A stretch of 64,000 bases of DNA from Cyanobacteria bacterium P01_D01_bin.156 (GCA_039024555.1 JBCCQQ010000007.1:1-64000), one strand, 5' to 3'; shown: positions 9,113 to 34,863, counted from the stretch's first letter. Notes: generated from the letters alone by a model not told the origin. Numbers and translations are program-made.

Positions 9113-9901
9113 TCAGTGCTTAAAATGCCGCTTTAGCTCAGCCTTTAGCTCCTCTAATGAACCATTCATCAAGTCGAATATAGAAATTTGACTGGGGTAG
9201 TAAGTATCAATCAGTTTGTGGATTCGTTCATCTTCAGATGGGCTTGCTCCGCTGATAGTATTGGCTACTGCATCAGCTAGTCGGCCACTACCGGCAATGA
9301 TGATCACCTGCCTACCCAACTGCAAATTGACCTCTAAATCCTGCAGTGATATTTGCCCTCCATTTATAAGGAGAGTCATAGACGGACATGCACCCGCTAA
9401 AGCTGACGACAATTCAGCCAGCCAGTGAGATTCGCTACCCCAGTTTTCCCCAGGCACCAAAAAAAAGTGCGTGTGATGGGGTTCCAATTCCACTGGTGGC
9501 TCTTCAGCATCCTCAGGTACGTGGGAGCTGTCCCCATCCGGAAAAACAATCCTTTTGAGAGGAGCAACCCCCACTAAATTAAATTGGCCGTGGACATGAT
9601 GGCGAGCTTCTCCCATCATGTGGATAACCCCAGCATCGGTTCCACCGTCTAGTACGGTAATGCCCTGCTCATTAGATAGAGTGGCCAAGGGACCGTTAAA
9701 AAACTGAACTAACTTTGCCTGGCTTTCATCAGTCATGTAGCTTGCGCCACCAATAACCAGAAGCGTTGGTGTCGGGCTTTGTAAGCCCAATGCCGATAAA
9801 GCATGTATGTATGCCGTACCGTTAGCAACTTTTAGCATTTTGGCCAGCTGCCCATTTGAAAACCTATGTTCAACGAGTCCATGAGCTGACATTTTGGGCA
9901 T
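9113..9901 (-). CDS. SLOG-superfamily LSDAT (prokaryotic TRPM-like SLOG) protein
   Basis: PTLLVIGGA, VLDGGTDAGVIHMMG, LVGVAP, LEPHHTHFFLVPG..WGSE, LLINGG, IIAGSGRLAD; paired with a DUF4231/SLATT gene. Confidence 0.8.
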   Translation of the reverse strand: MPKMSAHGLVEHRFSNGQLAKMLKVANGTAYIHALSALGLQSPTPTLLVIGGASYMTDESQAKLVQFFNGPLATLSNEQGITVLDGGTDAGVIHMMGEARHHVHGQFNLVGVAPLKRIVFPDGDSSHVPEDAEEPPVELEPHHTHFFLVPGENWGSESHWLAELSSALAGACPSMTLLINGGQISLQDLEVNLQLGRQVIIIAGSGRLADAVANTISGASPSEDERIHKLIDTYYPSQISIFDLMNGSLEELKAELKRHFKH

Positions 9902-10060
9902 TACTGATATCTCTTAAAGAAGTTGGTTAGACAGTCTGTGCGAATTACCCCATTTACACCCTCAAAACCGCTCATGTCAAACCCGCTCAAAACTATTAAT
10001 AATAAGGTGGCCGATCTGATTCAGAGCCATTCAATAATGGTAGAGCTGAAGTTTCCTTTG

Positions 10061-11608
10061 TTAGGCTAGGCTTGCCCGAGCGCGCTCTACATATTTCGAG
10101 AAAACATCCCAACCATGATATCCACCGTTGACTAACTTGCGAACGCGTCGCCAGTCACCAGCGCGAGATGCATCGGCCACGCCTCGTTCTTTAAAGTAGC
10201 AAGTTAGCACTAGTGCTGATATTTCTGGATCCATCGCTAGATCTGGATTGTTCTCCAGGTCTACCCCCAATTTCTGACCATAGGTTTGATAGTTGGCTCG
10301 TCCCGTCAGCTGAATATAACCACGACCATGGTACTTCACTCCATCTCCAGGGTTCACATTCCCTAAATCAGCCCTATCTTCGTAGCGTTTCCAGTAACTT
10401 TCGCCGCCCCACTCATGAACAGGCTTGAACCCACCGGTTTCAATGCGTATTGTCGCCAGTAAGCCAATCAGCACAGACTTGTCTAAAATGTCGTACTTCT
10501 GCATGGCTGCTAAAATACCCGGCAAATAGAGCTTACAGTCTTCTAATGAACATTCTAAAATCTGCGACACTTCATCGGGGGTGACCAACTGTTTGACTTG
10601 AGTGGTAGCAGCAGTCGTCGTACTACTTTGAGCCGATACACTAGTCGTACTATTTTGTTTGGTCAAAATAGTTTTGAGAGCCTTAAAGTCTACTTTCTCT
10701 TCCCATTCAAGGGCATGTTCCCCTAAGGGAGGCAAAGAGCTGCTTGAAGAGAGGGTGCGTTTAGAAGAAGAAGTACGTGCCGCAGGTTGTTGACTTGTGC
10801 CAGAGCTCGACGACATCAGAGACTGTACTTCGGTAACCGGAGCACCGGCGGTACCATGACTTACCTCTACTGCCTCAGTACCTGAGGGCATAGAAATATC
10901 TAACAGTTCACCGGAGTATGCAACACTTTCCGACACTGGCGGCTGGCTCGCCTGCTGGGCAGCCAGTTCAGCTCTTTGCTGTTCCAAACGCTGAGTCCGA
11001 GCCTCCAGTTCTTGGTTAAGACGCATCAATGCTTTTTCAGCATTGTTCTTTGCTTCTTGTGTCTCTTCCTTCTCTTCTTCCTGTTTCTCTTCTAGACGGG
11101 CAATAAAACCTTCCACATCTTTTTGAATATAGGATTCTACCCGTTGAGCAAAGTTTTTGTAGGCATCGGAGTGAACTTTGAATTTACGATAAGGGCCTGC
11201 TAGCTGCATAAACTGCCAGCCCTCAATTTTCATGCTTTCTGCTGTGCTGCGATAGTTTCGATATTTGTCACCGTGGCCAAAAAATTCTTCTACAGCAGCG
11301 GAAATAGCTACCGCCTGACTGATGCCTAAGGCAACCCAACCCACGACTTCACCAAGGGTATATCTGCCTAAACGCTGGTCACTCCTAAACCCCACCATAG
11401 CCGGCACAATCACACCGCCAATAATCGTGACCATGCGTAGGCGAAAGTGTTGATTACGCTCTTTTGTAGCTCGTCCTTCCAGCCACATCACTTGGTCCAA
11501 CCAACGGTTTTTGAGAAACTCCTTACGTAAATCCGAAATCTCTAGCTTGTCGATCAACCCCCCTAAGGTCTGCTTGAGATAGTCATTGTAAGTATTTTTT
11601 TTGCCCAT
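10061..11608 (-). CDS. DUF4231/SLATT 2-TM domain + coiled coil + Ser/Thr-rich linker + GH19 lysozyme/chitinase domain
   Basis: N-terminus RWLDQVMW...two hydrophobic helices...KYRNYRSTAESMKIEGWQF...FAQRVE. C-terminus IETGGF.PVHE...GDGVKYHGRGYIQLTGRANY...LENNPDL...VNGG (endolysin-type GH19 signature). Confidence 0.82.
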   Translation of the reverse strand: MGKKNTYNDYLKQTLGGLIDKLEISDLRKEFLKNRWLDQVMWLEGRATKERNQHFRLRMVTIIGGVIVPAMVGFRSDQRLGRYTLGEVVGWVALGISQAVAISAAVEEFFGHGDKYRNYRSTAESMKIEGWQFMQLAGPYRKFKVHSDAYKNFAQRVESYIQKDVEGFIARLEEKQEEEKEETQEAKNNAEKALMRLNQELEARTQRLEQQRAELAAQQASQPPVSESVAYSGELLDISMPSGTEAVEVSHGTAGAPVTEVQSLMSSSSGTSQQPAARTSSSKRTLSSSSSLPPLGEHALEWEEKVDFKALKTILTKQNSTTSVSAQSSTTTAATTQVKQLVTPDEVSQILECSLEDCKLYLPGILAAMQKYDILDKSVLIGLLATIRIETGGFKPVHEWGGESYWKRYEDRADLGNVNPGDGVKYHGRGYIQLTGRANYQTYGQKLGVDLENNPDLAMDPEISALVLTCYFKERGVADASRAGDWRRVRKLVNGGYHGWDVFSKYVERARASLA

Positions 11609-12538
11609 TTTATTGAATTTAGATGCAGTGCTTGGTTAAACAGAAAGCTCATGTCATGTCATCAACAACTGACAAAAACCTATGAACGCTGCTGAGCTCT
11701 GGCTGAATATGTCTCAGAAACTATGGCACGGAGCATACCTTGTAGACCAGAGCAGGGTATTGGTTATATCAACAACGGCATCCTGTAAAGAAACATGGAG
11801 AGCTAAAAATTCTACATAATCTATTGAATGGAGATATCTATATTAAAGGTTAAGGTTGCTTGGCCTAAGTCTACCCACAGAAATCGCTGTTCCTTAAGTC
11901 TCTTAATGCAAATTACTGAGGGTAAAATACAGTAATTTGCGCCAAGTTAAACAAGGTATTGCTTACATTTCAAATCAAAATCCCCAAAACGCCTAAGTTG
12001 TAACGCAACTCAAAGATAGACTGCATCACTTTGGAAACCAATCTTGTGTTTTACAAAAATTCACTCAAGAGCAAGATAAGTTGATGTAATGCCCAGCGTT
12101 GGTCTAGTCAATATGTTCGAAGCATTGTTAGGAAAGTGCTAGATAAGCATTGCAAACGATTGCTGAAAGAAGGACTGGTAGCAAGTGGAACCCAGATGGG
12201 GTTGACCTATATTGTCAGTTGTTATGAAGTCGATAGATATGTAAGGGGGGCAGATTTGGGCGATGTTTGTGACAAAAGGCTTTTAGCGTTATCCAATATT
12301 TGGGTAAAACTACTGAGTCAGCCTGGTTTTCCTATTCTAAGTTTTAGCTGTTCTGAGCTATAACAGACAGAACTTTGGGCCTAATGTTTTCAGGCTTAAG
12401 TTTGCTTGTTACTGCATTATTGATTGAGCTAATAACACTAGGGTCGCACTGGCAAAAGTCTATGCAGATTTATGCGTGGAACATAGTCCTGGTAATAGGC
12501 ATTTATTTTGATCAGTCGCCCTCTTGCAGTGGTGTTTA

Positions 12539-12638
12539 GGGCTTGTTAAAAATTAGAATCATGGCGGCCCTGTGCATTTAAATCACGGCTTAACAAGCTT
12601 TTCAGGCTTAAATCGTGAAGTCGTTTCTTAACCGCTAC
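12539..12638. mobile_element. ~100 bp MITE, family A, copy 1
   Basis: Near-identical to 60568-60664; imperfect terminal inverted repeats (gggcttgttaaaaa...tttcttaaccgctac); flanked by TTA...TTA. Confidence 0.75.
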
Positions 12639-12699
12639 TTAGTCAGGGTAGTCAAGGGTTGACTGTAGTGTTGTCAGGTTGTTTCATCTACGAGTGATT

Positions 12700-13890
12700 A
12701 TGGATTTAACTCTAGAAAAGCTGGAGACAGAATATAAGGCGGCGTTTGACTCCTGTGCTTTGCAGTCTAATGTGGAACCTACGGTCAGGGGGATTGTGGG
12801 ACGCATGGTGCAGTTGAGATCGCACTATGAAACCGTTGAAAAAGCAACGGGTATGCCCTGGTGGTTTATTGGAATTCTGCACTACAGCGAGTGGAATTTT
12901 CGCGAACCCGGTCAATTTGAGCAGGAAATTACCAACGTATTGATCGCCAAAAAGTATCACCAGGCCAAGACCCGTACCCTAGGGGCAATGTTGTGGGGAT
13001 TTGACCTATGGAATGGTTTTCGTGGCGGGGCTGGTAAACAATCTACCTGGGTATGGGGAGGGACCACAGTACTTAAAGAACCAACATCGCGGGTAGGAGC
13101 CGCAGCTATTGTGCGCTACCTACAGCAGCAGCAGCTGATTGATATCGGCCAAAAATCAGCCATTGAACTACTGGTACTGACAGATACCTTATTTAAACTA
13201 CGGCCAGAACAAAGTGCCCGCCTATCTGAGCGCGATAAGATCCGGGTGTCCGCTGGTACCCGGTTGGAGCTACTAGGGGATGACCCAGATCAGGGTAACC
13301 ATGTCAAAATTCGCATCCCGGATGGTTTGCTGATTGGTCAATATGATCGCCTGGACTGGTATGTGTATGCCCAACACATTCAGCTAGAAGGCACTGAACC
13401 TAACAATAAACCCAACGATCCGCCCGTAGAACCCGAGACAAAAATTGCTGCTCCCGACCGGGGGCGTCCAATTACTGTCCCTAAGTTAGGTACGGTATAT
13501 CTTGGGGAGCCTATTTTGACTAATGGGAATTTTAGCTGGGCTGAAGCCACTAAAAATGGAAATCGTATCCCAGTGGATGAAACCGTTGTTGATGGCATTA
13601 TTAAAATCGCCGAGGTGATGGAAGAGGTGCGAGAACTCCTGGGAAATCGGCCTATTACCGTGAACTCCTGGTACCGAGATCCGACTTCTAATCGAAGAGC
13701 AGGGGGGGCTAGTCGCTCTCGGCATCTGTCTGGTGATGCTATCGATTTTGTGGTTAAGGGAATTTCTCCTCCCCAGGTCAATCGTCAGCTAGAACCCTGG
13801 TGGGGTAATCGCGGTGGCTTAGCTAGCGCATCAGTATTCACCCACCTGGACGCCCGTGGGTATCGAGCCCGCTGGAGCTACGGCTTCTAG
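12700..13890 (+). CDS. Cell-wall hydrolase: lysozyme-like N-domain, middle beta-domain, C-terminal peptidase M15A (Zn D-Ala-D-Ala type)
   Basis: YETVEKATGMPWWFIGILHYSE; NFSWAEAT; PITVNSWYR...NRRAGGASRSRHLSGDAIDF...FTHLDARG; no signal peptide. Confidence 0.8.
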   Translation: MDLTLEKLETEYKAAFDSCALQSNVEPTVRGIVGRMVQLRSHYETVEKATGMPWWFIGILHYSEWNFREPGQFEQEITNVLIAKKYHQAKTRTLGAMLWGFDLWNGFRGGAGKQSTWVWGGTTVLKEPTSRVGAAAIVRYLQQQQLIDIGQKSAIELLVLTDTLFKLRPEQSARLSERDKIRVSAGTRLELLGDDPDQGNHVKIRIPDGLLIGQYDRLDWYVYAQHIQLEGTEPNNKPNDPPVEPETKIAAPDRGRPITVPKLGTVYLGEPILTNGNFSWAEATKNGNRIPVDETVVDGIIKIAEVMEEVRELLGNRPITVNSWYRDPTSNRRAGGASRSRHLSGDAIDFVVKGISPPQVNRQLEPWWGNRGGLASASVFTHLDARGYRARWSYGF

Positions 13891-14136
13891 AAAATTGACC
13901 AGTTCAGATTGTAAAGTCTGGGCTTAAACTGATTATTAGGTGGCTTACTCTTCTGGCTTCACCCAAGAGTTCGCTATGCTGAGGCTATGGTTGCAAATCT
14001 CTAGCGGAGTTGTCGACGGTAGACAAACTAAGAAGAATGCACTGGTACTACGAGGGCTAGATTTATGCAACAACTTTTTAGATAAAATGTAATTAAGGCT
14101 AATCAATATTCTATTTTTAGAAATACTGAAAATCTT

Positions 14137-17100
14137 ATGACACAAACATCTTTCTCTCCCCAGGATGTTTTTATCTCCTATGGCAGAGCAGACAGTCGTT
14201 TGTTTGCCCGCAGGCTCAAGGATCGTTTAGTAGAGTTAGGATTGACAGTCTGGTTTGACTTTGACGATATCCCTCTAGGAGTGGACTATCAAAATCAGAT
14301 TAATGACGGCATTGAAAAGGCTGATAATTTTCTCTTTATTATTTCTCCCCACTCCGTTAATTCTCCCTACTGTGCCAAAGAAGTCGAGCTGGCCTTGGCT
14401 TGTAATAAGAGAATTATTCCGCTGTTGCACGTGGAAGAGATTAGTCAGGAAACCTGGCAGCAGCGAAATCCAGACGCCAGTCAACTCAACTGGCAGGCTG
14501 TCAAAGAAAAAGGCGCTCACAGTAGCTTCCCGAATATGCACCCGGAAATTAGCAAAATTAACTGGGTTTATCTACGGGAAGGGATAGATGATTTTGAGCA
14601 GGGGCTGGCAGGGCTCAAGGTCATATTAGATCGTCATCAATCCTATGTACATCAACATACTCGACTACTAACCAAGGCATTGGAGTGGGATCGCCAACAG
14701 CGTCAGCCCCAGTATTTGATGGCTAATAATGAGTTGTTAGCTGAAGCTGAAAAATGGCTTGGTACAAGGTTTAAGGATGATCAGCCTCCCTGTATTCCTA
14801 CGGATTTGCACTGTGAATTTGTTACCGAGAGTATCAAGGTTGCCCATGAGCAGATGACCCAAATTTTCATATCCTACAGTGAAGAGGATATGGACATTCA
14901 GCAAAAGATCCGTAAACGCCTGATGAGAGAGGGCTTTACGGTTTGGGTAAACACCGTGGATATTCCCACGGCAACGGATTTTCAACAGGCGATTAATCGA
15001 GGAATTGAAAAGGCTGACAATATTGTTTTGTTGCTATCTCCCAATTCTCTGGCATCACAGTATTGTCAGCAAGAACTGGCCTATGCCCGTCAATACCACA
15101 AGCGGATTATTCCTTTGCTGGTGCAGTCCATGGATGTGGCGGTACTGCCTGACGATCTGCGGATGGTACAGTTTATTGATTTCTCATCCCTGGCGTCTGA
15201 TCTACATTTTGATCGAGCAGTGGCTGAGCTGATCCGCACTCTAAACAGTTCAGCTGATTACTTAACACAGCATAAGCAGCTGTTGGTCAAGGCTTTAGCC
15301 TGGGAAAATCAGGGGCGCGATCGCAAATTTTTACTGAGATCGAATGACTTTGCGGCGGCCAATACATGGCTATCGGAGTCTAGCCCCATCGGCAGTGAAC
15401 CCACCGACCTCCACACCGCGTTTATTCAAGCTAGTCAGGGAATAAATCAGTTTTACGACGTCTTTATTTCCTATGGGCGAGCCGATAGTAAGGCATTTGC
15501 TACCGATTTATATCAGCGGTTAAGCGCTCAAGGATTTCAGGTCTGGTTTGATCAAAATGCGATTCCCTTGGGCGTCGACTTTCAAGAACAGATTAACGAT
15601 GGCATTGAAAAAAGCCATAACTTTATCTTTATCATCGCTCCCCACTCGGTTAATTCTCCCTACTGTGCCAAAGAGATCGCTCTTGCTCTGAAATATAACA
15701 AACGTATTATTCCAATTTTGCAGGCGGAAGAAATTAGCTACTCCACCTGGCAAGAGCGCAACCCTGGCGGAAGCTCAGACCAGTGGGATGCCTATAAAGC
15801 GAAGGGTAAGCATTCCAGCTTTCCGAATATGCATCCTGAAATCAGCAAGATTAACTGGATCTATGCGCGGAACGGCATGGATGATTTAAACGCCGCCATG
15901 AATGGGCTCATGGAATTATGCCATCGCCATGAGGACTATGTTCATCAGCATACTGAGCTACTGATTCAGGCGCTGGCGTGGGAGCGTCATCAGAATCAGA
16001 GTTCCTATTTACTAATGGGAGAAGAGCGGTTACAGGCCCAAAATTGGCTGCTTACGGAATTTACGGGCGAGCAGGCCCCCTGTTCTGCTAGCCTGCTACA
16101 GGCAAAATTTATCACCGAGAGTGTCAAGACTGCAGATAGTGGTATGACTCAGGTCTTTCTCTCCTATGCAGAGGAAGATTTAGCTACTCGCGAAATAGTG
16201 CGGTATCACCTGCTTCAGTCCGGGGTAACCGTATGGACTAACACGGTAGATATTCGTATGGGGGAAGACTTTGAAGCCGCCATCCAGCGAGGGATTGAGG
16301 AAGCTGACAATATAGTCTATTTAATTTCTCAGAAATCCCTAGACTCAGAATATTGTCAAATGGAGATAGACCAGGCATTGGATCTCAATAAAAGAATTAT
16401 TCCGATGCTGGTGGAGGACCTTGATGTCAATCTATTGCCAGATACGATTCGCAAAATTCAATTTATTAATCTAACCGATAACCAAGCCGCCATTGACTTG
16501 GAAAAGGACTTGGCAGAATTACTGAGAGCCATTCGACAAGATGCCCCTTACTATAACCAGCATAAGCGGCTATTAGTACGTGCCCTCAAATGGGAACGAC
16601 AAAAACAAAATCCTAGCCTGTTGTTACAGCGACGTATGCAGGAGACCTATTTTGCCTGGGCACAAAATGCTAAAGGCAGGGCCGTAGGAGGAGCGCTACC
16701 GCTGCAGTTAGCATTTTTAGAGGCGAGCCAGACTCAATCCCCTGATCAAACGCTAGGGGTATTTTTTATTCACCACGTTGATGATTTTGATTTTGCTCAG
16801 CGCTTAAATGAAACTCTCTTGGTTCAAGGGAAAAGCTCCTGGCTTGCTCCGGAAGGGGCTGTGGGCGAAATGGACCGTTGGGATGATACAAAACAGCTCA
16901 TGGATAATGCCGAGAATGTTTTGTTTTTGTTGTCTCCGAGTTCGTTGCGCTGTAAGGCCTGCCTAGAACAGCTCAGCTATGCTCAAGCTCAACAAAAACG
17001 GGTGTTGCCCGTGATTTATCGAGATGTGGTGAAATCCTTGGTGCCAGGGAGTATTAAGACCGTTCCTTGGAGTGATTTTCGACGACATGGGGGAGACTTC

Positions 17101-18618: not shown

Positions 18619-18626
18619 GACATCTC

Positions 18627-19703: not shown

Positions 19704-19850
19704 AAAAACGCCGTTGCTGAGCCTCGGAAGGACTATCAGACAAAATCTCAAAGTTTACCTCCTGAACTGACCCTAGCAGAAACAAACATTCAGGACTTTA
19801 GTCATCCCTATTACTGGGCTGTCTTTAGCTTAGTGGGCAGTCCTTGGTAG
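19704..19850 (+). pseudogene. Orphan 3' end of a CHAT-domain gene
   Basis: Translates KNAVAEPRKDYQTKSQSLPPELTLAETNIQDFSHPYYWAVFSLVGSPW*. It matches the C-termini of the two downstream paralogues (QDFSHPYYWAAFNLVGSPW*) and has no in-frame ATG. Confidence 0.8.
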
Positions 19851-22900: not shown

Positions 22901-24879
22901 AAAGTCGTATAACCGGGAATGTCTTCAATCCAGTTGGTTCAACAAGTACCTCATTGTTGGTCGATAGAGACTCTGGTGAAGATATAGTAATTGATGCAAC
23001 AACTGGATTGGCGACAACTATAGACAATGGTCAAGAGATTGTTGTTGGAGAAGCAACTATGGATTTGTCCAACTCCATCTTGGTAAATCCTGGGACAAAT
23101 AAAGTAGAACTAAGCGGGCTTGTCGGTAACGATATAGAGTTGGTGGCTGCAACAGTTCCTGTTGAGATCCCAGTTGTAGACTTCTCAACAAATCAAACAC
23201 TTGGTCAAGTGTCTTTATCTCAAAACGGATTGACGGGTGAAATTATTAACTCAGGAGCTTCCCCATTGTCGGGGCAATTAATACTGCCAGAAACAATGCA
23301 GTCCGGAGATATTGAAATTGATCTGGAGACAGGCTCTATTGCTGATTTGTCTGGCAATATTGTTGGACAAGTTCTAGACACCTCACAACTTACTAGCTTG
23401 ACTGCGGATGGAGAACTGGAAATCGCTTTATTATTGCCACCAGCCAATGTGCCGCAAGAAGGAGCGCAGCCCCAAGTACTTGCACCAGAAGAGATAGCAC
23501 TTAGCTGTATTACTGATTGTTATGAACTTGAAACCTCCAGTGATTCTGTGCAATTTTTTGGAGGAGAAATTGATGTTTTGCCAGAACCTGAGTTAGCTTT
23601 TCAATATTTTGAACAGCAGATAACACAAGAAGTTGCTAATTATTTAGGGATAGAGGCAAGTGGTAGTGTCACAGGTGAGATATCCGCTAGCACCGAATCT
23701 TCGACTACCCTAGACTTACCCAAGGCAAAAGCTAGACTTAAGCAAGCGCAAGCGCAAACCGGTAAGCGCCCAGCGCTGATTTATGCTGTATTTGGCAACG
23801 CTGAAGAAGGCCTTGATAATGTTCTGCAAAGTACTGCACCGTTAGATCCGCTAGAGCTTCTACTGGTAACCGCAGATGGAGAGCCTATATATATCCAACT
23901 GCCTGCAAATCGGCGTGACGTTCTCGCACTAGCCCATCGTTTTCGGCGACAGGTAGCATCTCCTAGCCGTGTTGGCACCCAATCATATTTATCGATTGCG
24001 CAAGAGCTATATCAATTGCTCATTGCGCCTCTAGCAGCCGAACTGGCTGCTCAAGAGATCGATACCATTAGCTTTATTACCGATGCTGGGTTAAGGTCGC
24101 TGCCCTTGGCCGCTCTCCATGATGGCGAAAACTTTCTAATCGAAAACTACAATATTGGGTTGATGCCCAGCCTTACTCTCACAGATTTCACCTACAAAGA
24201 TATTCGTGATGTAGACGCGCTGGTGGCGGGCACATCTGTCTTTTCTGATCAGATTCATTTGCCCAGTGTCCCGGTGGAACTAAACGCAATTTCTTCTCAG
24301 TGGCGTAGTGCGTTGATCCAGGGCGATACCTTTAATTTGGAAACCCTTAAGGGAGAGCGGCAAACCAATGGCTACGGGATCTTACATCTAGCTACCCATG
24401 GTGAATTTAACCCAGGGGATTTATCGAAGTCTTATTTACATTTACACAACGACAAACTAGGACTACACGAGCTCCGCACCCTGGGTTTACATAAGCCCGG
24501 AGTAGAGCTAATTACCCTAAGTGCCTGCCAGACCGCATTGGGAAGCCGTACCGCTGAATTAGGCTTTGCAGGCTTTGCTGTATTAACCGGTGCTAAAACA
24601 GCGGTTGCCAGTCTGTGGAACATCAGTGATGACGCCTCAGCCGGGTTAATGATTGAATTTTATCAACAGCTTCAGGGCAGTCAGCCCACTATCAAAGCGG
24701 AGGCCCTACGCCAGGCACAGCTGGCCATGCTGCGCGGACAGATTACTGTTGAAAATGACCAGCTCAAGTTGCCCAGTGGTAATCATTCATTACCGACTGG
24801 CTTAGGAGAAGATGCAGTACAGGACTTTAGCCATCCCTATTACTGGGCTGCATTCAACCTAGTGGGCAGTCCTTGGTAG
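19996..24879 (+). CDS. Secreted filamentous-haemagglutinin (TPS-domain) protein with C-terminal CHAT caspase-like peptidase, paralogue 1
   Basis: Signal peptide ...AQAQ; HSFDQFGL, NIIGRITGG.ASIIDG, NLYLLNPSG; CHAT catalytic motifs HLATHG and LSACQTA; HPYYWAAF. Confidence 0.88.
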   Translation: MVRLFNRHHTASLLITFISPVALVTTAQAQSITSADNATTVQQIGDQYQIDGGNVSGDSTTLIHSFDQFGLLTGESAQFSNAATIENIIGRITGGDASIIDGLLAVDGNANLYLLNPSGIFFGENTQLNLAGSFSASTATGLNFGDELLDTLGTNDYASLTGAPTGYEFATETGALINTGDLAVTSGQSLTLLGGQVINTGQLSSGEVLVMAVPGENRVRLSQSGSLLGLELETLPNAAPTAAFTASTVPALLTGAGDLGMATDITVNADGSVSLSGSSLQIPMEEGTAVVSGQLTTDGGNVGVLGEQIALVGAAIDASGDAGGGTVLIGGDELGNGSVPNAEATVIDKNSVVLADARDTGNGGKIVAWGTNLLRSAGQLFARGGVNGGDGGFIETSSLGQLEVSATPDVSAVNGIGGLWLLDPATIRIVAGSGATNISNTNPFIVGGDITDALLGVDLITAALQGGNTVEIRTTGTTPGDGNITLETPLDYDDIDNSSLTLSAAGSIDIQADIIDGEVLVFDPVSSTESPDEQNLTLTLLANEQININGNIETGTGALTIISDQGNIDITRRLVTTSGDVSIRAPEGRVTISNVIHTSLDRFSEAFGLPEEQLIADTPGGDVTVSARRAIAVGDIITSSNGDLAGSISLESQISTIQTGKILANISDSVDGNITVAINHGGGDFLPFKVGDNSINGTAGVISLGNDIVFENRSFLGSSETPNGNTTLSFAPNSIILFGDETSEGLDQATELATGEIIGRFDDLNISIENSTGQVFGLMGDNFPDISIDDITGEAFSDGQLVAFAPLRADESGDASVLNALGVDSSVSNTLQLLPQTEPEFVRVLEESTDIQIGEVQLGRSLLTGLIFPIRDVLLPVDTTSSGFGPVGLSINAETGFATAIGENGDLEVVGKATMGSLDSILEDPVTGGLDLSLLAGSVINLRPEVDLVEIPVIDELTGQSIGKVTLNESRITGNVFNPVGSTSTSLLVDRDSGEDIVIDATTGLATTIDNGQEIVVGEATMDLSNSILVNPGTNKVELSGLVGNDIELVAATVPVEIPVVDFSTNQTLGQVSLSQNGLTGEIINSGASPLSGQLILPETMQSGDIEIDLETGSIADLSGNIVGQVLDTSQLTSLTADGELEIALLLPPANVPQEGAQPQVLAPEEIALSCITDCYELETSSDSVQFFGGEIDVLPEPELAFQYFEQQITQEVANYLGIEASGSVTGEISASTESSTTLDLPKAKARLKQAQAQTGKRPALIYAVFGNAEEGLDNVLQSTAPLDPLELLLVTADGEPIYIQLPANRRDVLALAHRFRRQVASPSRVGTQSYLSIAQELYQLLIAPLAAELAAQEIDTISFITDAGLRSLPLAALHDGENFLIENYNIGLMPSLTLTDFTYKDIRDVDALVAGTSVFSDQIHLPSVPVELNAISSQWRSALIQGDTFNLETLKGERQTNGYGILHLATHGEFNPGDLSKSYLHLHNDKLGLHELRTLGLHKPGVELITLSACQTALGSRTAELGFAGFAVLTGAKTAVASLWNISDDASAGLMIEFYQQLQGSQPTIKAEALRQAQLAMLRGQITVENDQLKLPSGNHSLPTGLGEDAVQDFSHPYYWAAFNLVGSPW

Positions 24880-25022
24880 TAAGGTCTGAACTGTGTGATT
24901 TCATTCAGGCTGAGCGTTCCTTAATGAAGGAATACAATTCAGAGGTAGGCTATCCCATAGGATTAAACTCTAAGTACCCCAAGCAAAGTACTGAGTTTCA
25001 AACCTAGAGAGATACTGCTCAC

Positions 25023-28000
25023 ATGGTTCGCCTATTCAATCGTCATCACACAGCTGCCCTACTCATCACATTCATCAGTCCTGTAGCCCTGGTGACGACT
25101 GCCCAAGCCCAGTCCATCACCTCAGCAGATAACGCTACAACCGTTCAGCAAATTGGTGATCAGTATCAAATTGATGGGGGAAATGTATCTGGGGATAGCA
25201 CCACCCTAATCCACAGCTTTGACCAGTTTGGCCTACTCACGGGCGAGTCGGCTCAGTTTAGCAATCCAGCCACTATCGAAAATATCATTGGCCGCATCAC
25301 CGGTGGTGATGCCTCGATTATTGATGGGTTGCTGGCGGTGGATGGCAATGCCAATTTGTATTTGCTCAATCCATCCGGCATATTTTTTGGCGAAAATACC
25401 CAGCTCAATCTAGCCGGTTCCTTTTCTGCATCCACCGCCACGGGCCTTAACTTTGGCGATGAGCTACTCGATACGTTAGGTACCAATGACTATGCATCGT
25501 TAACCGGTGCCCCCACAGGCTATGAGTTTGCGACTGAAACCGGTGCCCTAATCAATGCGGGGGATTTGGCGGTTACATCGGGGCAATCCCTCACCCTGTT
25601 GGGTGGCCAGGTGATCAATACAGGCCAGCTATCTGGCGGTGAAGTGTTGGTCATGGCTGTGCCTGGAGAAAACCGGGTACGCCTTAGCCAGTCAGGATCA
25701 TTGCTAGGTTTAGAACTAGAAACCTTACCTAATGCAGCCCCCACAGCTGACTTTACGGCTTCAACTGTGCCTGCTCTACTGACTGGGGCTGGTGATTTGG
25801 GTATGGCTACAGATATTACTGTGAATGCTGACGGTAGTGTGAGTTTGTCGGGCTCATCTCTACAGATTCCGATGGAGGAGGGCACAGCTGTTATTAGCGG
25901 TCAGCTGACGACCGATGGTGGCAATGTTGGTATATTGGGAGAACAGATTGCTCTGGTAGATGCAACACTTGATGCTTCGGGTGATGCTGGCGGTGGCACC
26001 GTACTCATTGGTGGGGATGATCTAGGCAATGGTACAGTGCCTAATGCAGCGGCAACTGTTATTGATGAGAATTCTGTTGTTCTGGCCGATGCGAGAGATG
26101 CGGGTAATGGCGGCAAGATTGTTGCTTGGGGAACAAACCTGTTGCGGTCTGCAGGGCAGTTGTTTGCCAGGGGAGGAGTCAATGGTGGTGATGGTGGTTT
26201 TATTGAGACGAGTAGTTTAGGTCAGTTAGAAGTTAGTGCGACACCAGATGTGTCTGCTGTCAATGGAAGTGGCGGGCTATGGCTATTAGATCCTGCCAAT
26301 ATTCGAATTGTTGCAGGTGATGGCTCAACTAATATTAATAGTACTCCGGGAACAGTAGCTACTTCAGAGGTCATTACTCCAGCTATGCCAGGGATGACGA
26401 TAACAGACCCTATTACAGGTGTGATGACAATTACACCCGGTACTCCAGAGACAATTACTCCGGCGACTCCAGGAACTCCAAGTATTTTTAGCTCAGGTGC
26501 TGCACCACCTGAATCGACATTGGGAGTCGACTTAATTACCGATGCACTGGCTAATGGGACCAATGTCGAAATTATTACAACTGGTGATACCCCTGGCGAT
26601 GGCAATATTATTCTAGAAACTCCGCTTGATTACCATCAGACCGGTAGCAATAGTCTAAGTTTGATTGCAAAAGGTGAGATTCAGATCCTGGCTGATATCT
26701 TTGACAGTGAGTTGACTACTTTTACTGAAACGGTAATGGTTACAACTGGCCCTCCTCTGATAGGCCCTGACGGACTTCCAATTCCTGGCACTGAAACAAC
26801 AACGACAACGACGACGATAACAACAACGGAGTCGTTTGATGATTTGAATCTCACGCTTGAGGCTAATGAGCAAATTACTGTGACGGGCTCTATTAATTCA
26901 GGCGAAGGCGACATTAATATCTCGTCTCTTGAGGGAGATATTAATATCAGCAATAATTTAACCACCTCGGGCGGGGACGTATCTCTTAGCGCACCACAAG
27001 GAGATATTGTTTTTGATTCCATTGACACAGGTAGTAATCTCGCATCTGGCAATGGTGGTGACGTCACTATTGCCGCCATAGAAGGGACTGTTAGGGGCAT
27101 AGGCGGACCTACAACAATCGCAACCGTTGGAGAACTTTCAGATGGAAGCATCACCATTACCCACGGAGGTGGTCTGGACGATACCCCTTTCACAGTTGGT
27201 GATGCATCTGTAAACGGAACAGCGGGCTCGATTATTACCGGAGAAACCACTCTGGAAAATTTATCCTTTCCAGGCAGTGTGGAAATAGGCAATATTCAGA
27301 TTCTAACTCCAGATTCTGAGGTGGCAGAAACAGAAGAAACAACTGAAACTTGCATCACTGACTGTGAGGATGAAGAGCTAACTGAAAATGCTATTCAAGT
27401 TCCCTTAGAAGCCGTCAATGTGTTGCCAGCACCGGAACTGGCTATGCAAACCTTGGAACGACAGTTAACAGAAGAAGTCAGTGATTATTTGGGCCTAGAA
27501 GATAGTGTAGGTTCAACTAACTCAACTGAGCTTGCCAACTTACCCATGGCTCAAAACAGCTTGCGCAAAGTGCAAGGACAAACGGGTAAACGTCCTGCCC
27601 TTATTTATGCCGTATTTGGCTCTGGGGAGACTGCTGACGATGCTGAAAATATTCTTCAACAGTCGATGCCATCAGATAAGTTAGAACTTTTACTAGTTAC
27701 TGGCGACGGCCCGCCTAAGTATATTCAAATGTCAGAAACACGAGCAGAGGTTCTACAACTGGCCCATCGTTTCCGGCGTCAGGTAGCATCCCCGAGTCGT
27801 GTGGGCACTCAATCGTATTTACCGATTGCGCAAGCGCTATATCAATTACTCATCGAGCCCCTAGTAGCAGAACTTAATGCCCAAGAGATCGATACCATTA
27901 GCTTTATTACCGATGCTGGCTTGAGATCATTGCCTTTGGCCGCTCTCCATGATGGCGAAAGCTTTTTAATCGAAAACTACAATATCGGGTTAATGCCCAG

Positions 28001-28709
28001 CCTTAGTCTGACAGATCTCACCTATAAAGACATTCGTGATGTGGGTGCATTGGTAGCGGGCACCTCGGTCTTTCCGGATCAGGTTTCATTACCCAGCGTT
28101 CCAGTGGAACTAAAGGCGATTTCGTCTCGGTGGCGTAGTGCTTTGCTTGAGGGAAATTCCTTTAATCTAGATACTCTAAAAGGTGAGCGCCAGACAGCAT
28201 CTTATGGAATTCTACATCTGGCGACCCATGGTGAATTTAACCCAGGGGATTTATCGAAGTCTTATCTGCATTTACACAATGAAAAGCTAGGGTTAGATCA
28301 GCTACGTACCCTAGGCTTACACAAGCCTGGGGTAGAACTTATTACCCTAAGTGCCTGCCAGACCGCCTTGGGCAGCCGCGCCGCTGAGCTGGGCTTTGCA
28401 GGCTTTGCTATATTGACGGGAGCCAAAACAGCGGTTGCCAGTCTATGGAACATCAGCGATGACGCCTCAGCAGGGTTGATGATTGAATTTTATCAACAGC
28501 TCCAGGAAAGTCAGCCCACCATCAAAGCAGAGGCTCTACGACAGGCTCAGCTAGCCATGTTGCGGGGGAAGATTACTGTCGAAAATGGCCAGCTCAAGTT
28601 GCCCAGTGGTAATCATTCACTACCGGCTGGCTTAGGAAAAGATGCGGCACAGGATTTTAGCCATCCCTATTACTGGGCTGCATTTAACTTGGTAGGCAGC
28701 CCATGGTAA
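25023..28709 (+). CDS. Secreted filamentous-haemagglutinin (TPS-domain) protein with C-terminal CHAT peptidase, paralogue 2
   Basis: The N-terminal ~430 aa and the CHAT domain are nearly identical to 19996-24879, but the central region differs and is shorter. HLATHG and LSACQTA are intact. Confidence 0.88.
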   Translation: MVRLFNRHHTAALLITFISPVALVTTAQAQSITSADNATTVQQIGDQYQIDGGNVSGDSTTLIHSFDQFGLLTGESAQFSNPATIENIIGRITGGDASIIDGLLAVDGNANLYLLNPSGIFFGENTQLNLAGSFSASTATGLNFGDELLDTLGTNDYASLTGAPTGYEFATETGALINAGDLAVTSGQSLTLLGGQVINTGQLSGGEVLVMAVPGENRVRLSQSGSLLGLELETLPNAAPTADFTASTVPALLTGAGDLGMATDITVNADGSVSLSGSSLQIPMEEGTAVISGQLTTDGGNVGILGEQIALVDATLDASGDAGGGTVLIGGDDLGNGTVPNAAATVIDENSVVLADARDAGNGGKIVAWGTNLLRSAGQLFARGGVNGGDGGFIETSSLGQLEVSATPDVSAVNGSGGLWLLDPANIRIVAGDGSTNINSTPGTVATSEVITPAMPGMTITDPITGVMTITPGTPETITPATPGTPSIFSSGAAPPESTLGVDLITDALANGTNVEIITTGDTPGDGNIILETPLDYHQTGSNSLSLIAKGEIQILADIFDSELTTFTETVMVTTGPPLIGPDGLPIPGTETTTTTTTITTTESFDDLNLTLEANEQITVTGSINSGEGDINISSLEGDINISNNLTTSGGDVSLSAPQGDIVFDSIDTGSNLASGNGGDVTIAAIEGTVRGIGGPTTIATVGELSDGSITITHGGGLDDTPFTVGDASVNGTAGSIITGETTLENLSFPGSVEIGNIQILTPDSEVAETEETTETCITDCEDEELTENAIQVPLEAVNVLPAPELAMQTLERQLTEEVSDYLGLEDSVGSTNSTELANLPMAQNSLRKVQGQTGKRPALIYAVFGSGETADDAENILQQSMPSDKLELLLVTGDGPPKYIQMSETRAEVLQLAHRFRRQVASPSRVGTQSYLPIAQALYQLLIEPLVAELNAQEIDTISFITDAGLRSLPLAALHDGESFLIENYNIGLMPSLSLTDLTYKDIRDVGALVAGTSVFPDQVSLPSVPVELKAISSRWRSALLEGNSFNLDTLKGERQTASYGILHLATHGEFNPGDLSKSYLHLHNEKLGLDQLRTLGLHKPGVELITLSACQTALGSRAAELGFAGFAILTGAKTAVASLWNISDDASAGLMIEFYQQLQESQPTIKAEALRQAQLAMLRGKITVENGQLKLPSGNHSLPAGLGKDAAQDFSHPYYWAAFNLVGSPW

Positions 28710-28720
28710 GGATGCTAAGT

Positions 28721-28883
28721 TAAGCCGAGAAATTTTGGCTATGGACGAATTTGGAGTTTTGAATCCGGAGTTCAAAAAGGTAGGATATTCCAAATTCAAG
28801 ACTCTGAAGACCTTGGGAAATCATTCTGCTCTGTGGTCGGTGGGTGGTCGTCCGGCGCAAGCCATGACAATTTTCTAGGCTCA
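28721..28883. repeat. ~160 bp dispersed structured repeat (MITE-like), family B, copy 1
   Basis: Starts taagccgagaaattttggct and ends aattttctaggctca (imperfect inverted ends); aligns by eye with 48171-48312. Confidence 0.65.
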
Positions 28884-30929
28884 CACGAGTGTCTGTAGAG
28901 TATCTAGTTCAGTATGAATTCTCTCCTCTAATGCTTTAAGGCGCTCAATGGTCTGCTCTCGGTTAATTTCGTTCTGTTGCTTCTTTTCTACTAGACTACT
29001 GAGTTCTAAACGACGGGAAGCAATGTCAGCACTCACACGGTCAATGGCGCGTTCTTCATAGGTACCAAAACAATCGGTGACGGCCTTGTAGATAGGCTGC
29101 CACTGATCAGCCGCAATCTGGGGAAGATGTTTGACAAACTCTTTACGGGTTGCTTTGAGAAATTCTTGACGGACAAACTCGGCCTGGGCTGCTAATAGGC
29201 CACCGGCTGCTGCAATCACTCCCACAATGTTGAGGAATAAACTACTAAAGAGTAACCCTAAAATTTGTAAAGCGATAACAATACAGACATAGCTAACGGC
29301 CATCTGTAGTACGGACTGCCAAAAATGGTTGAAGGGCATGACCGCATCGTTTAGGGTGTCGGGAATCTCATCGAAGAGATCGCGAATGTTGTCAAGCCAA
29401 GGGCGCGGTTCTTCAGTGGAACGGGTGCCGGGGGCATAGAACTTACGTCCCATCATTTTTTCATGGATAACTTCTACCACTTCGGCATAGGCCACCTGGT
29501 ATTCGTTAGCGCTCTCATTGAGTTCATCAAAGACCTGACCAATTTTTTGCTTGGCGGTAAACTCCCAAGCGGCTAGGCGATCGTTAATGTAGCGCTCAAA
29601 CGCTCGCTTAAATTCTTTGTAAAATTCGTCTCGCTGCTCTTCGTCGAGAAAGCTCAGAAAGTCGAGATCGGGCTGAGAAGCGACAAAGTCGGTTTCGAAA
29701 CTTGCTTCTAGGTTAAGGATATAGGTTTTGAAAGAGTCGGCAATGGCTTTAGCGCTGCGATCGCAGCGTCCCCGAATGAGTTGTCGATAGTTATCGCGAA
29801 TTTTCTCCAGTTTCCCAAACTCGCTTTCCACCGAAACTACCCGCTGCTGTAGCTCACTGAGGTCTTCATCTAGTAGCGGAATGCGTCGAGCAACGGTTTC
29901 TTGCACGGCACTGTAGGCTCGATGGGCCAACTTGGCCGCTCGTTGTAGTTCCGCTTGCCCCCGCTCTTGGGTCAAAAATGATTCCAGAGCAGTGAAAAAG
30001 GTATCCACACCACTGCCCGCCAGAGATGTCTGTTTACGCTGTTGGCGCAGTGCGGTAAGAGCTGATACCTCAAACCAGGTGGTTTCTGGTGGCAGACTTT
30101 GGGCAAATACCTGACGTTGACGGTTCTCGGCGTCTTCTAAAGCCGCGTCATCTTCAGGATTAACCAAACTCGCCCGAATCCGGTCCCAGCCATTGATTAC
30201 GTAAAAACACTCCAGGTCTCGACTCTGAATGTAATTATTTAAGTAGCGACGTTCGTCCAGGGTCATGGGCTGCATTGCATCCACCACAAACACTACCGCC
30301 TGCGCCTCGTTTAAGTAACTCAGGACCTGCTGGTTGCGGGTTTCTGTATCGTTAAGACCGGGAGTATCCACAATCTCCAAACCAGAGGCCAATAGAGGAA
30401 CAGGAGCTTCAATTACGACGTGACTAATATCAGGAAACGCATTGGTTTCTAGCTGACGAGCTTCATCAGGGGAGATGGTGTAATCGTTCTGGAATGTCTC
30501 AAAATCAATGACCTTAGGGGCATTATTGTTGTTGTAATGTATGGTCACTCGACGCTCTGGTCCGTGCCGTAGCACGCTTAGCAGGGCCGTGCAGGGGTTC
30601 ACGTCACTGGGTAGCAGCGTATCTCCTACCAATGCGTTAATTAGGGTGCTTTTTCCCCGTTTCATTTCCCCTAGAACAACGATACGGTAGGTGCCCTCTT
30701 GAAGTTGTTCTGCGGTGCTTTTCAGAGTACTTATGTGGCGACTCAGCCCCAGCTGTCCGGAACTCTCGTGGGTATCGGCCCGGTCCATCGCGATCGCAAT
30801 TTGGTCCAAAACCTGGGCTGCCTGTTGGCGATTCTGATAAAACTGGTCAAGGCTGTTAGCCAAGTTAGGGAAAGAACCGTTTGCTGCCGGAGATGTGACC
30901 ATAGAAAAAATATTTGCTTTTACACTCAC
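28881..30929 (-). CDS. Bacterial dynamin-like protein (BDLP family GTPase)
   Basis: G1 GEMKRGKST, PSDVNPCT, G3 DTPGLND, G4-like INGWD, hydrophobic paddle near the C-terminus. Start is GTG 30929 or ATG 30902. Confidence 0.88.
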   Translation of the reverse strand: MSVKANIFSMVTSPAANGSFPNLANSLDQFYQNRQQAAQVLDQIAIAMDRADTHESSGQLGLSRHISTLKSTAEQLQEGTYRIVVLGEMKRGKSTLINALVGDTLLPSDVNPCTALLSVLRHGPERRVTIHYNNNNAPKVIDFETFQNDYTISPDEARQLETNAFPDISHVVIEAPVPLLASGLEIVDTPGLNDTETRNQQVLSYLNEAQAVVFVVDAMQPMTLDERRYLNNYIQSRDLECFYVINGWDRIRASLVNPEDDAALEDAENRQRQVFAQSLPPETTWFEVSALTALRQQRKQTSLAGSGVDTFFTALESFLTQERGQAELQRAAKLAHRAYSAVQETVARRIPLLDEDLSELQQRVVSVESEFGKLEKIRDNYRQLIRGRCDRSAKAIADSFKTYILNLEASFETDFVASQPDLDFLSFLDEEQRDEFYKEFKRAFERYINDRLAAWEFTAKQKIGQVFDELNESANEYQVAYAEVVEVIHEKMMGRKFYAPGTRSTEEPRPWLDNIRDLFDEIPDTLNDAVMPFNHFWQSVLQMAVSYVCIVIALQILGLLFSSLFLNIVGVIAAAGGLLAAQAEFVRQEFLKATRKEFVKHLPQIAADQWQPIYKAVTDCFGTYEERAIDRVSADIASRRLELSSLVEKKQQNEINREQTIERLKALEERIHTELDTLQTLV

Positions 30930-31181
30930 TACAGTTCAGTTTGCCTCAATTCCCTAGAACCGTGATCACTCAGCGCAAGTCTGCGGACTCAATTTAATCA
31001 GAATGAATAATTAAACAGGCAACATTGTTCATGAGCTCAATTTTTGTAAAGGTGACAGCACGATTCTTAGGCTTCCTACCCTATTAACGAAGGGAAGATG
31101 GCTACAATAGAAGCGTTTAGTAGGCATATTTCTCCAAATATTTCAAGCGCTGTCCCCACTGTTCTATTTGTTTAGTTGTTT

Positions 31182-32492
31182 ATGGCCTCTGCTGACGATT
31201 ACTATGCGCGGCTACAGGTATCTTCGGATGCCAGTCAAGCAGAAATTAAGGCAGCGTTTCGTCGCCTGGCACGGCGCTATCACCCTGATCTAAATCCAAA
31301 CGATCCTAGGGCACTAGAAAAATTTCGAGCCCTGCACGAAGCCTATGAAGTCCTGATGGATCAGGTGCAGCGACAGCTGTATGACCGCACGGGCACTACA
31401 GAATACAACGGTACCCGTCCGCAAACTGCCCACGATTTCTATATGCGGGGTATTCAGCAAACCTTGGCCCGTCAATACAAGTCAGCGCTGACGGATTTTA
31501 ATCGGGCTATTGAACTCCAACCCGCATTGGCAGAAGCCTATCTGCGGCGAGCCCAAGTCCGCTACATTTTGAATGATGATGCTGGGGTGTTAGCGGACTG
31601 TCAACAGCTACGACAGTTTCCTCGCCAACTACCGCAGACTTACTATTATCTTGGGCTAGCGCGCTATCGTTTGGGGTATACCGAAAGTGCACTGGCTGCT
31701 TTTTCTAGTGCCATTGAACAAGAGCCAGATGACCCTAAGCTTTACTTTCAGCGAGGGGTGGCATACGAAGATATTCAAGAATGGAACGAAGCGGCTAACG
31801 ATTTTCAAACGGCCTCTGTCCACTACCAGGCCCAGGGCGATTTAGAAGGCTATCATCACAGTCGCGATCGCATCCAAAAGCTACAGAAACAACGTCGCTA
31901 CAAGTTCAAACATCGTCGCACTCGAGATCTAGCAAGCCGTTTAGGACGATTTGAACAAGCCAATCGCCTATTATTTGGATTATTGGGAAATCCTGCCATA
32001 GAACTTATCAATTTGCATAGCCGCCTGACTCAGCGACAGGCGTCATACATGGGGTGTATCCTTGCTGCCTTTGGGTTACTGGGGTTTACATTGGGAGGCT
32101 ACGTTTTACAGTTTGCTGAAAATACTAGCCCGGGTATTGCCTTTACTGGTCTATGGCTGGCAGGTTGTACAGTCTTTTTGAGTTTGATTATTGCCCTGGG
32201 CGGTTCACGTCTGTGGCTGCGTCGCCATGGTAGCTGGGCTAACGATACCTTCATTGCCGGAGCTACCCTTTTGCCCATGGGTATGTTTGTGCTTATCAGC
32301 CCGATGGTTTTGCTCATCCCATGGCTGTGGTTGTTATTGCTGAGTGTTAGCCTGCACCATACTTTTTTAACCCTTTACAGCGGTTGTCATCACATTCATC
32401 ACTATTCTGAAGTGGTAGCTACTTGGCTAACGCCCAGTTTACTTTTTCTCAGCATGAGCCTGGGCTATTTAATGTGGAATACTTGGATATAA
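31182..32492 (+). CDS. DnaJ-domain + TPR + C-terminal multi-TM protein
   Basis: DYYARLQV...RRYHPDLN...EAYEVL (J domain, HPD), four TPRs, several hydrophobic helices. Confidence 0.85.
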   Translation: MASADDYYARLQVSSDASQAEIKAAFRRLARRYHPDLNPNDPRALEKFRALHEAYEVLMDQVQRQLYDRTGTTEYNGTRPQTAHDFYMRGIQQTLARQYKSALTDFNRAIELQPALAEAYLRRAQVRYILNDDAGVLADCQQLRQFPRQLPQTYYYLGLARYRLGYTESALAAFSSAIEQEPDDPKLYFQRGVAYEDIQEWNEAANDFQTASVHYQAQGDLEGYHHSRDRIQKLQKQRRYKFKHRRTRDLASRLGRFEQANRLLFGLLGNPAIELINLHSRLTQRQASYMGCILAAFGLLGFTLGGYVLQFAENTSPGIAFTGLWLAGCTVFLSLIIALGGSRLWLRRHGSWANDTFIAGATLLPMGMFVLISPMVLLIPWLWLLLLSVSLHHTFLTLYSGCHHIHHYSEVVATWLTPSLLFLSMSLGYLMWNTWI

Positions 32493-34853: not shown

Positions 34854-34863
34854 ATCTTAAAAA

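Follow-up and report, generated by a model that had tools for sequence, protein, structure and literature searches.

A candidate Thoeris-like pathway of membrane TIR receptors, an LSDAT reader and a SLATT-muramidase effector in cyanobacteria

The first 64,000 nucleotides of contig C7 in the 6.6-Mb genome of Cyanobacteria bacterium P01_D01_bin.156 (here G000), referred to as the window, carry a group of genes at bases 9113-18618 that is probably the gathered core of a genome-wide, Thoeris-like cyanobacterial pathway ending in lysis. The core comprises a stand-alone LSDAT (SLOG) gene, a gene fusing a SLATT (DUF4231) domain to a GH19 muramidase, a gene for a signal-less M15 wall hydrolase and a gene for a membrane receptor with five TIR_2 domains and a CHASE2 domain.

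In the proposed mechanism, receptors of the inner membrane, which by predicted topology hold one to five TIRs in the cytoplasm and expose a WD40 propeller or CHASE2 domain on the outer face, would be clustered by an outer cue, and the TIRs would then convert nicotinamide adenine dinucleotide (NAD+) to an ADP-ribose (ADPR) derivative, a step suggested by the intact catalytic glutamates and the known chemistry of TIR domains. A single shared LSDAT protein resembling TRPM2 would bind this signal, as its fold, pocket residues and co-occurrence suggest, and the liganded protein would activate the SLATT membrane effector or, in other genomes, a patatin lipase, for which adjacency and LSDAT-SLATT fusions speak. 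Here the GH19 part attached to SLATT is predicted to lie in the cytoplasm, and the signal-less M15 protein accompanies it; a breach of the membrane would admit both enzymes to the wall, like a signal-gated holin-endolysin system, and the cell would lyse. The broader picture of a Toll-like surface network, in which about 1-15 TIR receptors per genome feed one TRPM2-like hub that commands a SLATT pore and the cell's own endolysins, is put forward tentatively, as a possibility somewhat short of even.

Linkage and co-distribution of the receptor, proposed reader and proposed effector genes

Among 301 sampled cyanobacterial genomes, 82 carry LSDAT above the cut-off, and a profile of the TIR domain together with its helical unit also matches 82. 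The two coincide closely (77 genomes with both, 5 and 5 with one alone, 214 with neither; phi 0.92), whereas TIR_2 in general, present in 188 of the 301, gives a phi of 0.47 with LSDAT; restricted to these 188 genomes, the counts are 77/5/5/101. The TIR-unit profile was built partly from LSDAT neighbours, and dropping the 15 contributing genomes gives 62/5/5/214. A query made from the window receptor alone (TIR + CHASE2) identified 33 carrier genomes, of which 33/33 have LSDAT. Within single families some genomes have the genes and others lack them, a patchiness that would speak against simple common descent: in families of 29, LSDAT and the TIR unit number 15 and 16 (f14), 19 and 19 (f16) and 3 and 3 (f5).

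Linkage was assessed at 86 of the 90 LSDAT loci outside the genus, up to 10 kb on each side, leaving out four loci near contig ends (G096, G173:C462, G078 and G143). Neighbour domains were called by custom profiles, with a Pfam check on 110 neighbours and then on 20 more proteins, and a comparison by rank distance and the G000 background served as controls. TIR genes account for 29/493 neighbours at ranks 1-3 from LSDAT, 5/295 at ranks 4-5 and 1/373 at rank 6 or beyond, compared with 29/5083 genes in G000. A TIR gene lies within three genes of LSDAT at 26/86 loci, spread over 9/15 families, and a SLATT gene lies within two genes at 46/86. A further 51 loci, counted after duplicates and an ortholog block were dropped, include 19 with a near TIR gene and 39 with a near SLATT gene. 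The neighbourhood and co-occurrence analysis that the original prediction had proposed as its check thus finds LSDAT/SLATT-muramidase genes and TIR receptors linked, and co-distributed, far beyond the genus, contrary to the lack of linkage that it had named as a refutation.

Receptor, LSDAT, SLATT-muramidase and signal-less hydrolase genes are found together again, differently arranged, in distant families (L129, L161, L214 and L121), and at L236, L252, L253 and L254 the place of GH19 is taken by GH24, an unrelated lysozyme. The Nostoc record L236 reads CHAT, three-TIR/CHASE2, DUF928, LSDAT, SLATT-GH24, hydrolase, and the metagenome loci L252-L254 hold SLATT-GH24, LSDAT, hydrolase and receptor in three different orders, with the CHASE2 end of the receptor alone in view at L252. 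Genomes G107 and G119 (family f10; L250 and L251) keep the window order of SLATT-GH19, M15, five-TIR/CHASE2, TPR and TPS genes, with a second SLATT gene in the slot of LSDAT and LSDAT itself elsewhere in the genome. In a quick LSDAT tree, the window, L121/L236 and L129/L138/L161 fall into separate starred groups. Receptors lie far from LSDAT in many genomes, and 15 of the 29 TIR genes in G000 belong to this receptor family against one LSDAT; the locus is therefore regarded as the gathered core of a dispersed network. LSDAT with a short SLATT gene and no nearby TIR gene is seen at L109, L120, L133 and several Nostoc-titled loci, and the receptor family was not found genome-wide in G220, G168 and G196, to which the first three belong.

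Within the genus, LSDAT is present in 21/21 relatives and shares a contig with the receptor, about 4 kb away, in 15/21; in the other 6/21 the contig breaks or the receptor is unassembled. Genus synteny alone proves little, since carB and its neighbours are equally syntenic.

Anatomy of the proposed reader, effector and receptors

All nine genes named in the original prediction were found where it had placed them, each domain scoring above its Pfam cut-off, including the LSDAT_prok, DUF4231, GH19, TIR_2, CHASE2 and CHAT matches for which it had proposed confirmation by hidden Markov models. The SLATT-GH19 gene (10061-11608, minus strand) and LSDAT (9113-9901, minus strand), which lies 159 bp downstream, form a leftward pair. 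The rightward run on the plus strand consists of the M15 hydrolase (12700-13890), the TIR/CHASE2 receptor (14137-18618), a TPR protein after a gap of 8 bp, and two TPS-CHAT genes. The M15 and SLATT-GH19 genes are divergent, and the receptor stands on the strand opposite to LSDAT, with the hydrolase gene between them. Scans for promoters and terminators gave no more hits than shuffled sequence did (10 versus 17.3 and 11 versus 12.0), and no informative repeat was found in the 1.09-kb divergent gap.

The LSDAT protein, the proposed nucleotide reader, has 262 amino acids, consists of SLOG only and was detected as a single copy in G000. It matches LSDAT_prok (PF18171) at 192.8 bits against a cut-off of 25.4 (E 5e-57), and no LSDAT match was obtained with NCBIfam or PADLOC models. 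Its closest named relatives carry Leptothoe, Adonisia and Leptolyngbya titles, all of them cyanobacteria, and LSDAT was also found in records titled as unicellular groups. Cultured carriers of the gene include Leptolyngbya sp. PCC 7375 and Nostoc sp. FACHB-152. The predicted structure is confident (predicted local distance difference test, pLDDT, 94), and the best solved relatives are TRPM2 N-terminal domains (MHR1/2; profile E 2e-21, Foldseek E 6e-15). In human TRPM2 MHR1/2, ADP-ribose is contacted by Y295, R302 and R358 (PMC6759353); LSDAT W154 and R207 align with Y295 and R358, and both are invariant in 41 sequences. Long LSDAT forms number 12 among 7999 scored candidates, 11/12 being SLATT fusions, with no SIR2 family listed among the 12; two more LSDAT-SLATT fusions precede TIR-WD40 genes (L211 and L238). 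Such a pairing of a SLOG sensor with a two-helix SLATT effector, either in one chain or as neighbours, was reportedly predicted by Burroughs et al. in 2015 in Nucleic Acids Research (NAR). By a count made by eye, an NAD(P)HX repair gene (YjeF_N + Carb_kinase) stands next to LSDAT or its cluster at 15/86 loci (L043, L092, L102, L104, L106, L107, L110, L111, L114, L122, L127, L130, L143, L145 and L154), mostly confined to one part of the quick tree.

In the proposed pore-plus-lysin effector, the DUF4231 part passes the NCBIfam SLATT_1 model (NF033634; 96.5 versus 41 bits) and has two hydrophobic helices (residues ~55-73 and ~88-106), after which a Ser/Thr-rich linker leads to a GH19 part matching the phage endolysin family phrog_181 (E 3e-46), with Glu...Glu and GRG..QLT motifs present. 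The M15 protein combines an unnamed N-domain, a middle domain that is possibly SH3-like, and a Peptidase_M15_3 zinc peptidase with its His/Asp/His motifs kept; the motifs of both enzymes are taken here to be catalytic. The M15 protein matches phage endolysin families, and its N-domain resembles viral proteins, a phage/lysozyme-like lead (score 0.92). A comparison of ortholog lengths favours ATG 12700 over TTG 12679 as its start, and the earlier description of a wall hydrolase without a signal proved correct, no hydrophobic segment being found in 12679-13890. Among the 120 SLATT homologues listed of 166, 75 end in GH19 and 28 in GH24; other C-termini include a C39-like peptidase and, in G146, an M15 domain in the same frame. 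Outside the genus, a long SLATT gene faces 5/6 full-length M15 orthologues.

Phage holin-endolysin lysis pairs a small membrane protein with a signal-less muramidase or peptidase. The GH19 and M15 motifs, together with the lack of an export signal, fit such parts, activity being predicted from sequence. If SLATT crosses the membrane twice and has both its ends in the cytoplasm, GH19 would stay off the wall until the membrane is breached, and the signal-less M15 protein would likewise be kept from it. Two further observations concern the effector genes. At 4/4 GH24 loci a small, unannotated open reading frame of 102-111 amino acids lies between SLATT-GH24 and the hydrolase gene (L236:13394-13702, L252:4775-5110, L253:11522-11830 and L254:11436-11750). 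Proteins with a TPR-S domain, some accompanied by a cyclase and others forming one chain with SLATT or LSDAT, are repeatedly encoded close to LSDAT, SLATT or TIR genes (L093, L095, L233, P0001, L265 and L277) and possibly represent another output or a second signal.

The window receptor is built of five repeats of a TIR domain and a helical unit, a helix at ~1076-1094, CHASE2 and C-terminal membrane helices, as Pfam and hydropathy indicate. The TIR catalytic glutamate, a residue of established role, is present in TIR1-4 (E82, E313, E513 and E743) and replaced by Gln in TIR5; it is kept in 34/36 aligned TIR units. A helical unit of ~55 residues follows each TIR, and the same combination is common to 50/53 LSDAT-adjacent TIR proteins; the fold search of the unit covered its TIR part. 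A hydrophobic helix follows the last unit in 102/109 distinct family members (WD40 67/68, CHASE2 28/28, others 7/13) and is preceded by Lys/Arg in the printed rows, so that by the positive-inside rule the TIRs are predicted to be cytoplasmic and the C-terminal domains outside. The CHASE2-TIR receptor of the original prediction is thus real, although it was drawn too narrowly, CHASE2 being one outer domain among several and WD40 the commoner. Other members of the family are placed variously. Contig C11 of G000 carries four tandem one-TIR/WD40 receptors (64938-77639) and contig C57 a five-TIR/WD40 receptor of 1782 amino acids (34762-40110). Most genus relatives have a three-TIR/WD40 receptor behind TPS-CHAT (L009:5262-9464, with matching sites at L007, L013, L015, L018, L020 and L024), its G000 orthologue lying on C6. 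In G020 the five-TIR/CHASE2 gene is split by an insertion-sequence transposase (L031:1807-3111).

The CHASE2 cassette and neighbouring genes

Behind the receptor, an exported TPR protein (18627-19703, plus strand) occupies the slot held by DUF928 in related cassettes. Pfam recognises its TPR part, and its N-terminal half is DUF928-like by predicted structure (template modelling, TM, score 0.62), with no significant match to DUF928 by hhalign (probability 2%). Two TPS (haemagglutinin-type)-CHAT proteases follow, both on the plus strand and both identified by Pfam: the first (19996-24879) is regarded as an accessory belonging to the CHASE2 input cassette, and the second (25023-28709) is its tandem duplicate, a copy seen only in G000. 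In both, CHAT is preceded by a hydrophobic segment at the N-terminus and by a TPS export domain, and both keep the His and Cys of established catalytic role (His1468/Cys1511 and His1069/Cys1112). An orphan CHAT gene 3' end at 19791-19861 (plus strand; repeat family D5) is 87% identical to the end of TPS-CHAT 1 (24820-24890) and is a trace of tandem amplification or of a lost third copy.

True DUF928 stands behind the three-TIR/CHASE2 paralogues, which are accompanied by DUF928, TPS, FhaC and TPR-CHAT genes. In G000, 10/12 DUF928 genes lie beside a CHASE2 gene by a count made by eye, and the CHASE2-DUF928-TPS-CHAT cassette is repeated with other CHASE2 receptors, the genome having ~50 TPS/CHAT relatives. 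Given the DUF928 slot and these recurring CHASE2/DUF928 neighbourhoods, bases 18627-28709 are therefore regarded as a common cyanobacterial CHASE2 cassette. A single TPS-CHAT gene follows the receptor in 10/13 genus relatives with the flank in view and is missing in 3/13; in G021 the TPR and TPS-CHAT genes are gone, with IS66 in their place (L028:14649-16112). Of the earlier proposal that the CHAT proteases are parts of the locus, their presence and catalytic pair stand, whereas their place is that of a generic cassette. The outer ligand of the CHASE2 receptors may tentatively be linked to the DUF928-like/TPR and TPS-CHAT proteins, which would probably make it up or process it, and a protease-made cue is conceivable. 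A further TPR-CHAT protease is encoded at 51303-53816 (minus strand), 19 kb past the block studied.

The bacterial dynamin-like protein (28881-30929, minus strand) and the DnaJ + TPR membrane protein, or J-TPR (31176-32492, plus strand), both identified by Pfam and both named as members by the original prediction, turn out to be bystanders: a dynamin gene lies up to 20 kb behind the receptor in 1/11 relatives with the flank in view, and J-TPR tracks the dynamin gene, within ~10 kb, in 5/5 genomes checked. Dynamin-based defence as part of the locus was rejected, since linkage of the dynamin gene to the other genes is not conserved. Beyond it lies a complete chemotaxis-like cluster (33174-42566, plus strand) of two receiver proteins, CheW, GAF-MCP, a CheA-like protein and CheW, and in G013, too, the dynamin gene has a related cluster next to it.

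Weight of the evidence and comparison with known systems

Several observations weigh against a lytic pathway of this kind. No TIR gene lies within three genes of LSDAT at 60/86 loci, and a wall hydrolase lies within four genes at 5/86 (in a run without the GH24 model), so that muramidase lysis would be one output and not the rule. At E 1e-8, 17/82 LSDAT genomes give no PF14015 match; several of these carry a divergent DUF4231-SLATT_1 or patatin gene beside LSDAT, and at SLATT-less loci a patatin or TPR-S/cyclase gene may occupy the place of SLATT. With all candidates scored, the TIR unit is absent from five LSDAT genomes (best E 1e-13 to 1e-17), and in G132 a good receptor match is present without LSDAT, while the remaining 4/5 TIR-only genomes have short or broken matches. 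All such counts come from related genomes and are therefore not independent. TRPM2 R302 has no Arg counterpart in LSDAT, and the ligand may accordingly differ from that of TRPM2; receptor topology is predicted from hydropathy. Throughout the genus the block keeps its place next to carB, as housekeeping genes do, and PADLOC models (1e-10) matched 11/133 flanking proteins at 26 TIR-linked loci, mostly of generic families and without a control set for comparison.

Some of these points would suit a non-lethal use of the same circuit, in development or cell-cell contact and not in defence, with an LSDAT-gated SLATT channel acting as a split TRPM2 and the hydrolases remodelling the wall or septum or breaking filaments. 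The stable chromosomal site, with LSDAT in every genus relative, the lack of an evident defence-island signature in the PADLOC matches, the many other CHASE2 receptors of G000 served by CHASE2-DUF928-TPS-CHAT cassettes and the absence of a hydrolase from most SLATT partners all favour such a role. However, presence is patchy within families and genera, the receptors are tandem-amplified (four in a row on C11), and the effectors swap between SLATT, SLATT-SLATT_1, a patatin resembling CBASS lipases and phage-endolysin-like GH19/GH24/M15 in a manner typical of death modules, which leaves a non-lethal role unlikely, although deserving of attention. It is also conceivable that the TIR repeats are a toxic NADase, with LSDAT as a brake or clean-up enzyme for ADP-ribose products and SLATT and the hydrolases acting in parallel. 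A five-TIR array could deplete NAD unaided, degradation of ADPR signals by some SLOG domains has been proposed (PMC9503650), and the NAD(P)HX repair gene is a neighbour of LSDAT at 15/86 loci. Against this, LSDAT is joined to SLATT or patatin effectors, or lies directly beside them, as a sensor would be, the repair-gene loci lie mostly in one part of the tree, and in nine LSDAT genomes the sole TIR_2 match is this receptor, so that a role as a brake appears decidedly improbable.

The original prediction had conceded that adjacency of families common in large cyanobacterial genomes might be chance, held together by ordinary synteny. G000 does have 29 TIR genes and ~50 TPS/CHAT relatives, housekeeping neighbours are equally syntenic in the genus, and chance does describe 28881-32492, the dynamin and J-TPR genes, while 18627-28709 is the generic cassette. 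For 9113-18618, in contrast, the thinning of TIR genes with distance from LSDAT, the phi of 0.92 against 0.47 for TIR_2 in general, the reshuffled cassettes in distant families and the swaps of non-homologous muramidases make chance very improbable, and for the LSDAT core it is already disfavoured. The first reading is supported for its TIR/LSDAT/SLATT-muramidase core, fails for dynamin and J-TPR, and reduces to a generic cassette for CHAT; a protease-made cue, an anti-phage function and the sacrifice of a filament cell are speculative elements of it. A stranded prophage holin-endolysin cassette, comprising SLATT-muramidase and M15 and unrelated to the TIR receptors, would explain why GH19 and M15 match phage endolysin families, and also the likeness of the M15 protein's N-domain to viral proteins (0.92). 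However, the SLATT relatives on viral contigs (31 loci, L278-L308, many titled giant-virus bins) are only 26-33% identical in DUF4231, no phage genes were found among 29 window proteins scanned, and in distant families SLATT-muramidase and M15 genes still accompany TIR receptors and LSDAT. The first two of these grounds led to the rejection of a prophage origin, which is most improbable.

If the Toll-like surface network is real, it would combine receptor-level outside sensing and a many-sensors-one-hub layout like plant TIR-EDS1 with a split forerunner of the ADP-ribose-gated TRPM2 channels and a host-encoded holin-endolysin suicide. In the Thoeris types of the texts cited below, small operons have a TIR sensor of phage infection; a membrane-spanning TIR family would extend bacterial TIR signalling to extracytoplasmic cues, like Toll-like receptors. 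The prokaryotic LSDAT family would gain a candidate ligand source and output, and with them a handle on the origin of the ADP-ribose site of TRPM2, while the long-debated question of regulated cell death in cyanobacteria would gain named candidate genes. Prevalence is about a quarter of the sampled genomes (77/301), and some genomes have the pathway in minimal form, with a single receptor, LSDAT and SLATT gene; G058 and G294 are minimal genomes with one receptor.

The original prediction knew of no described system with this combination, and a literature search with little coverage of subscription journals found neither a coupling of membrane TIR receptors to LSDAT nor a fusion of SLATT to a muramidase described, and likewise nothing on the receptor topology or the genome-wide co-occurrence. 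The main text of a survey of TIR operons in defence islands, whose Table S1 gives 29 putative effectors, does not mention DUF4231, WD40 or patatin; its Figure 1C and supplements may bear on novelty (bioRxiv 10.64898/2025.12.03.692087). The available parts of PMC8195603, PMC7159879, PMC10799925 and PMC13434031 contain nothing bearing on the system.

In Thoeris type I (ThsB TIR with ThsA SIR2-SLOG), as described in bioRxiv 10.1101/2021.01.06.425286, a TIR acts upstream of a SLOG-fold reader and several TIR sensors feed one reader, as proposed here; in the present case, however, there is no SIR2, SLOG is a stand-alone TRPM2-like LSDAT, the TIRs reside in membrane receptors scattered over the genome, and the output is SLATT, muramidase or patatin. 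According to bioRxiv 10.64898/2025.12.03.692087, type VII is a two-gene operon of a TIR and the SLATT effector ThsH, found by defence-island enrichment and also present in Cyanobacteriota, which uses canonical cyclic ADP-ribose (cADPR) thought to be bound by SLATT. The window resembles it in having a SLATT effector near a TIR gene, by SLATT_1 score and linkage, but places a separate SLOG gene between, has a receptor as its TIR, on the opposite strand, and bears a muramidase on SLATT, a layout other than the two-gene operon. Type III, in the same text, joins several TIR proteins to a SLOG-containing effector; multiple TIRs with SLOG are shared, whereas the receptor scores 154 bits against the 220-bit cut-off of the ThcB4 model. 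Type IV has a cytoplasmic, signal-gated caspase-like effector, whereas the CHAT proteases here are predicted to be exported and are missing behind the receptor in 3/13 relatives.

The cyanobacterial caspase-CHASE2 receptors and CHASE2-DUF928 neighbourhoods described in the accessible parts of PMC3501461 and PMC5587647 share the N-terminal cytoplasmic enzyme, single helix, outer CHASE2, C-terminal helices and adjoining DUF928; here TIR repeats replace the caspase, and those parts describe no SLOG/SLATT link. Animal TRPM2 (PMC6759353) has the same fold, with equivalents of Y295 and R358 kept, but here the sensor is encoded apart from the membrane part, SLATT does not belong to the TRP channels, and R302 is not kept. 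Phage holin-endolysin systems are alike in parts, whereas here the membrane part and muramidase form one chain, chromosomally encoded and tied to a nucleotide sensor. Judged from its genes and domains, the pathway is Thoeris-like with a layout different from those that define types I, III, IV and VII, and it looks like a genuine form of TIR-SLOG signalling that has not been described before, unusual in its receptor and in its output.

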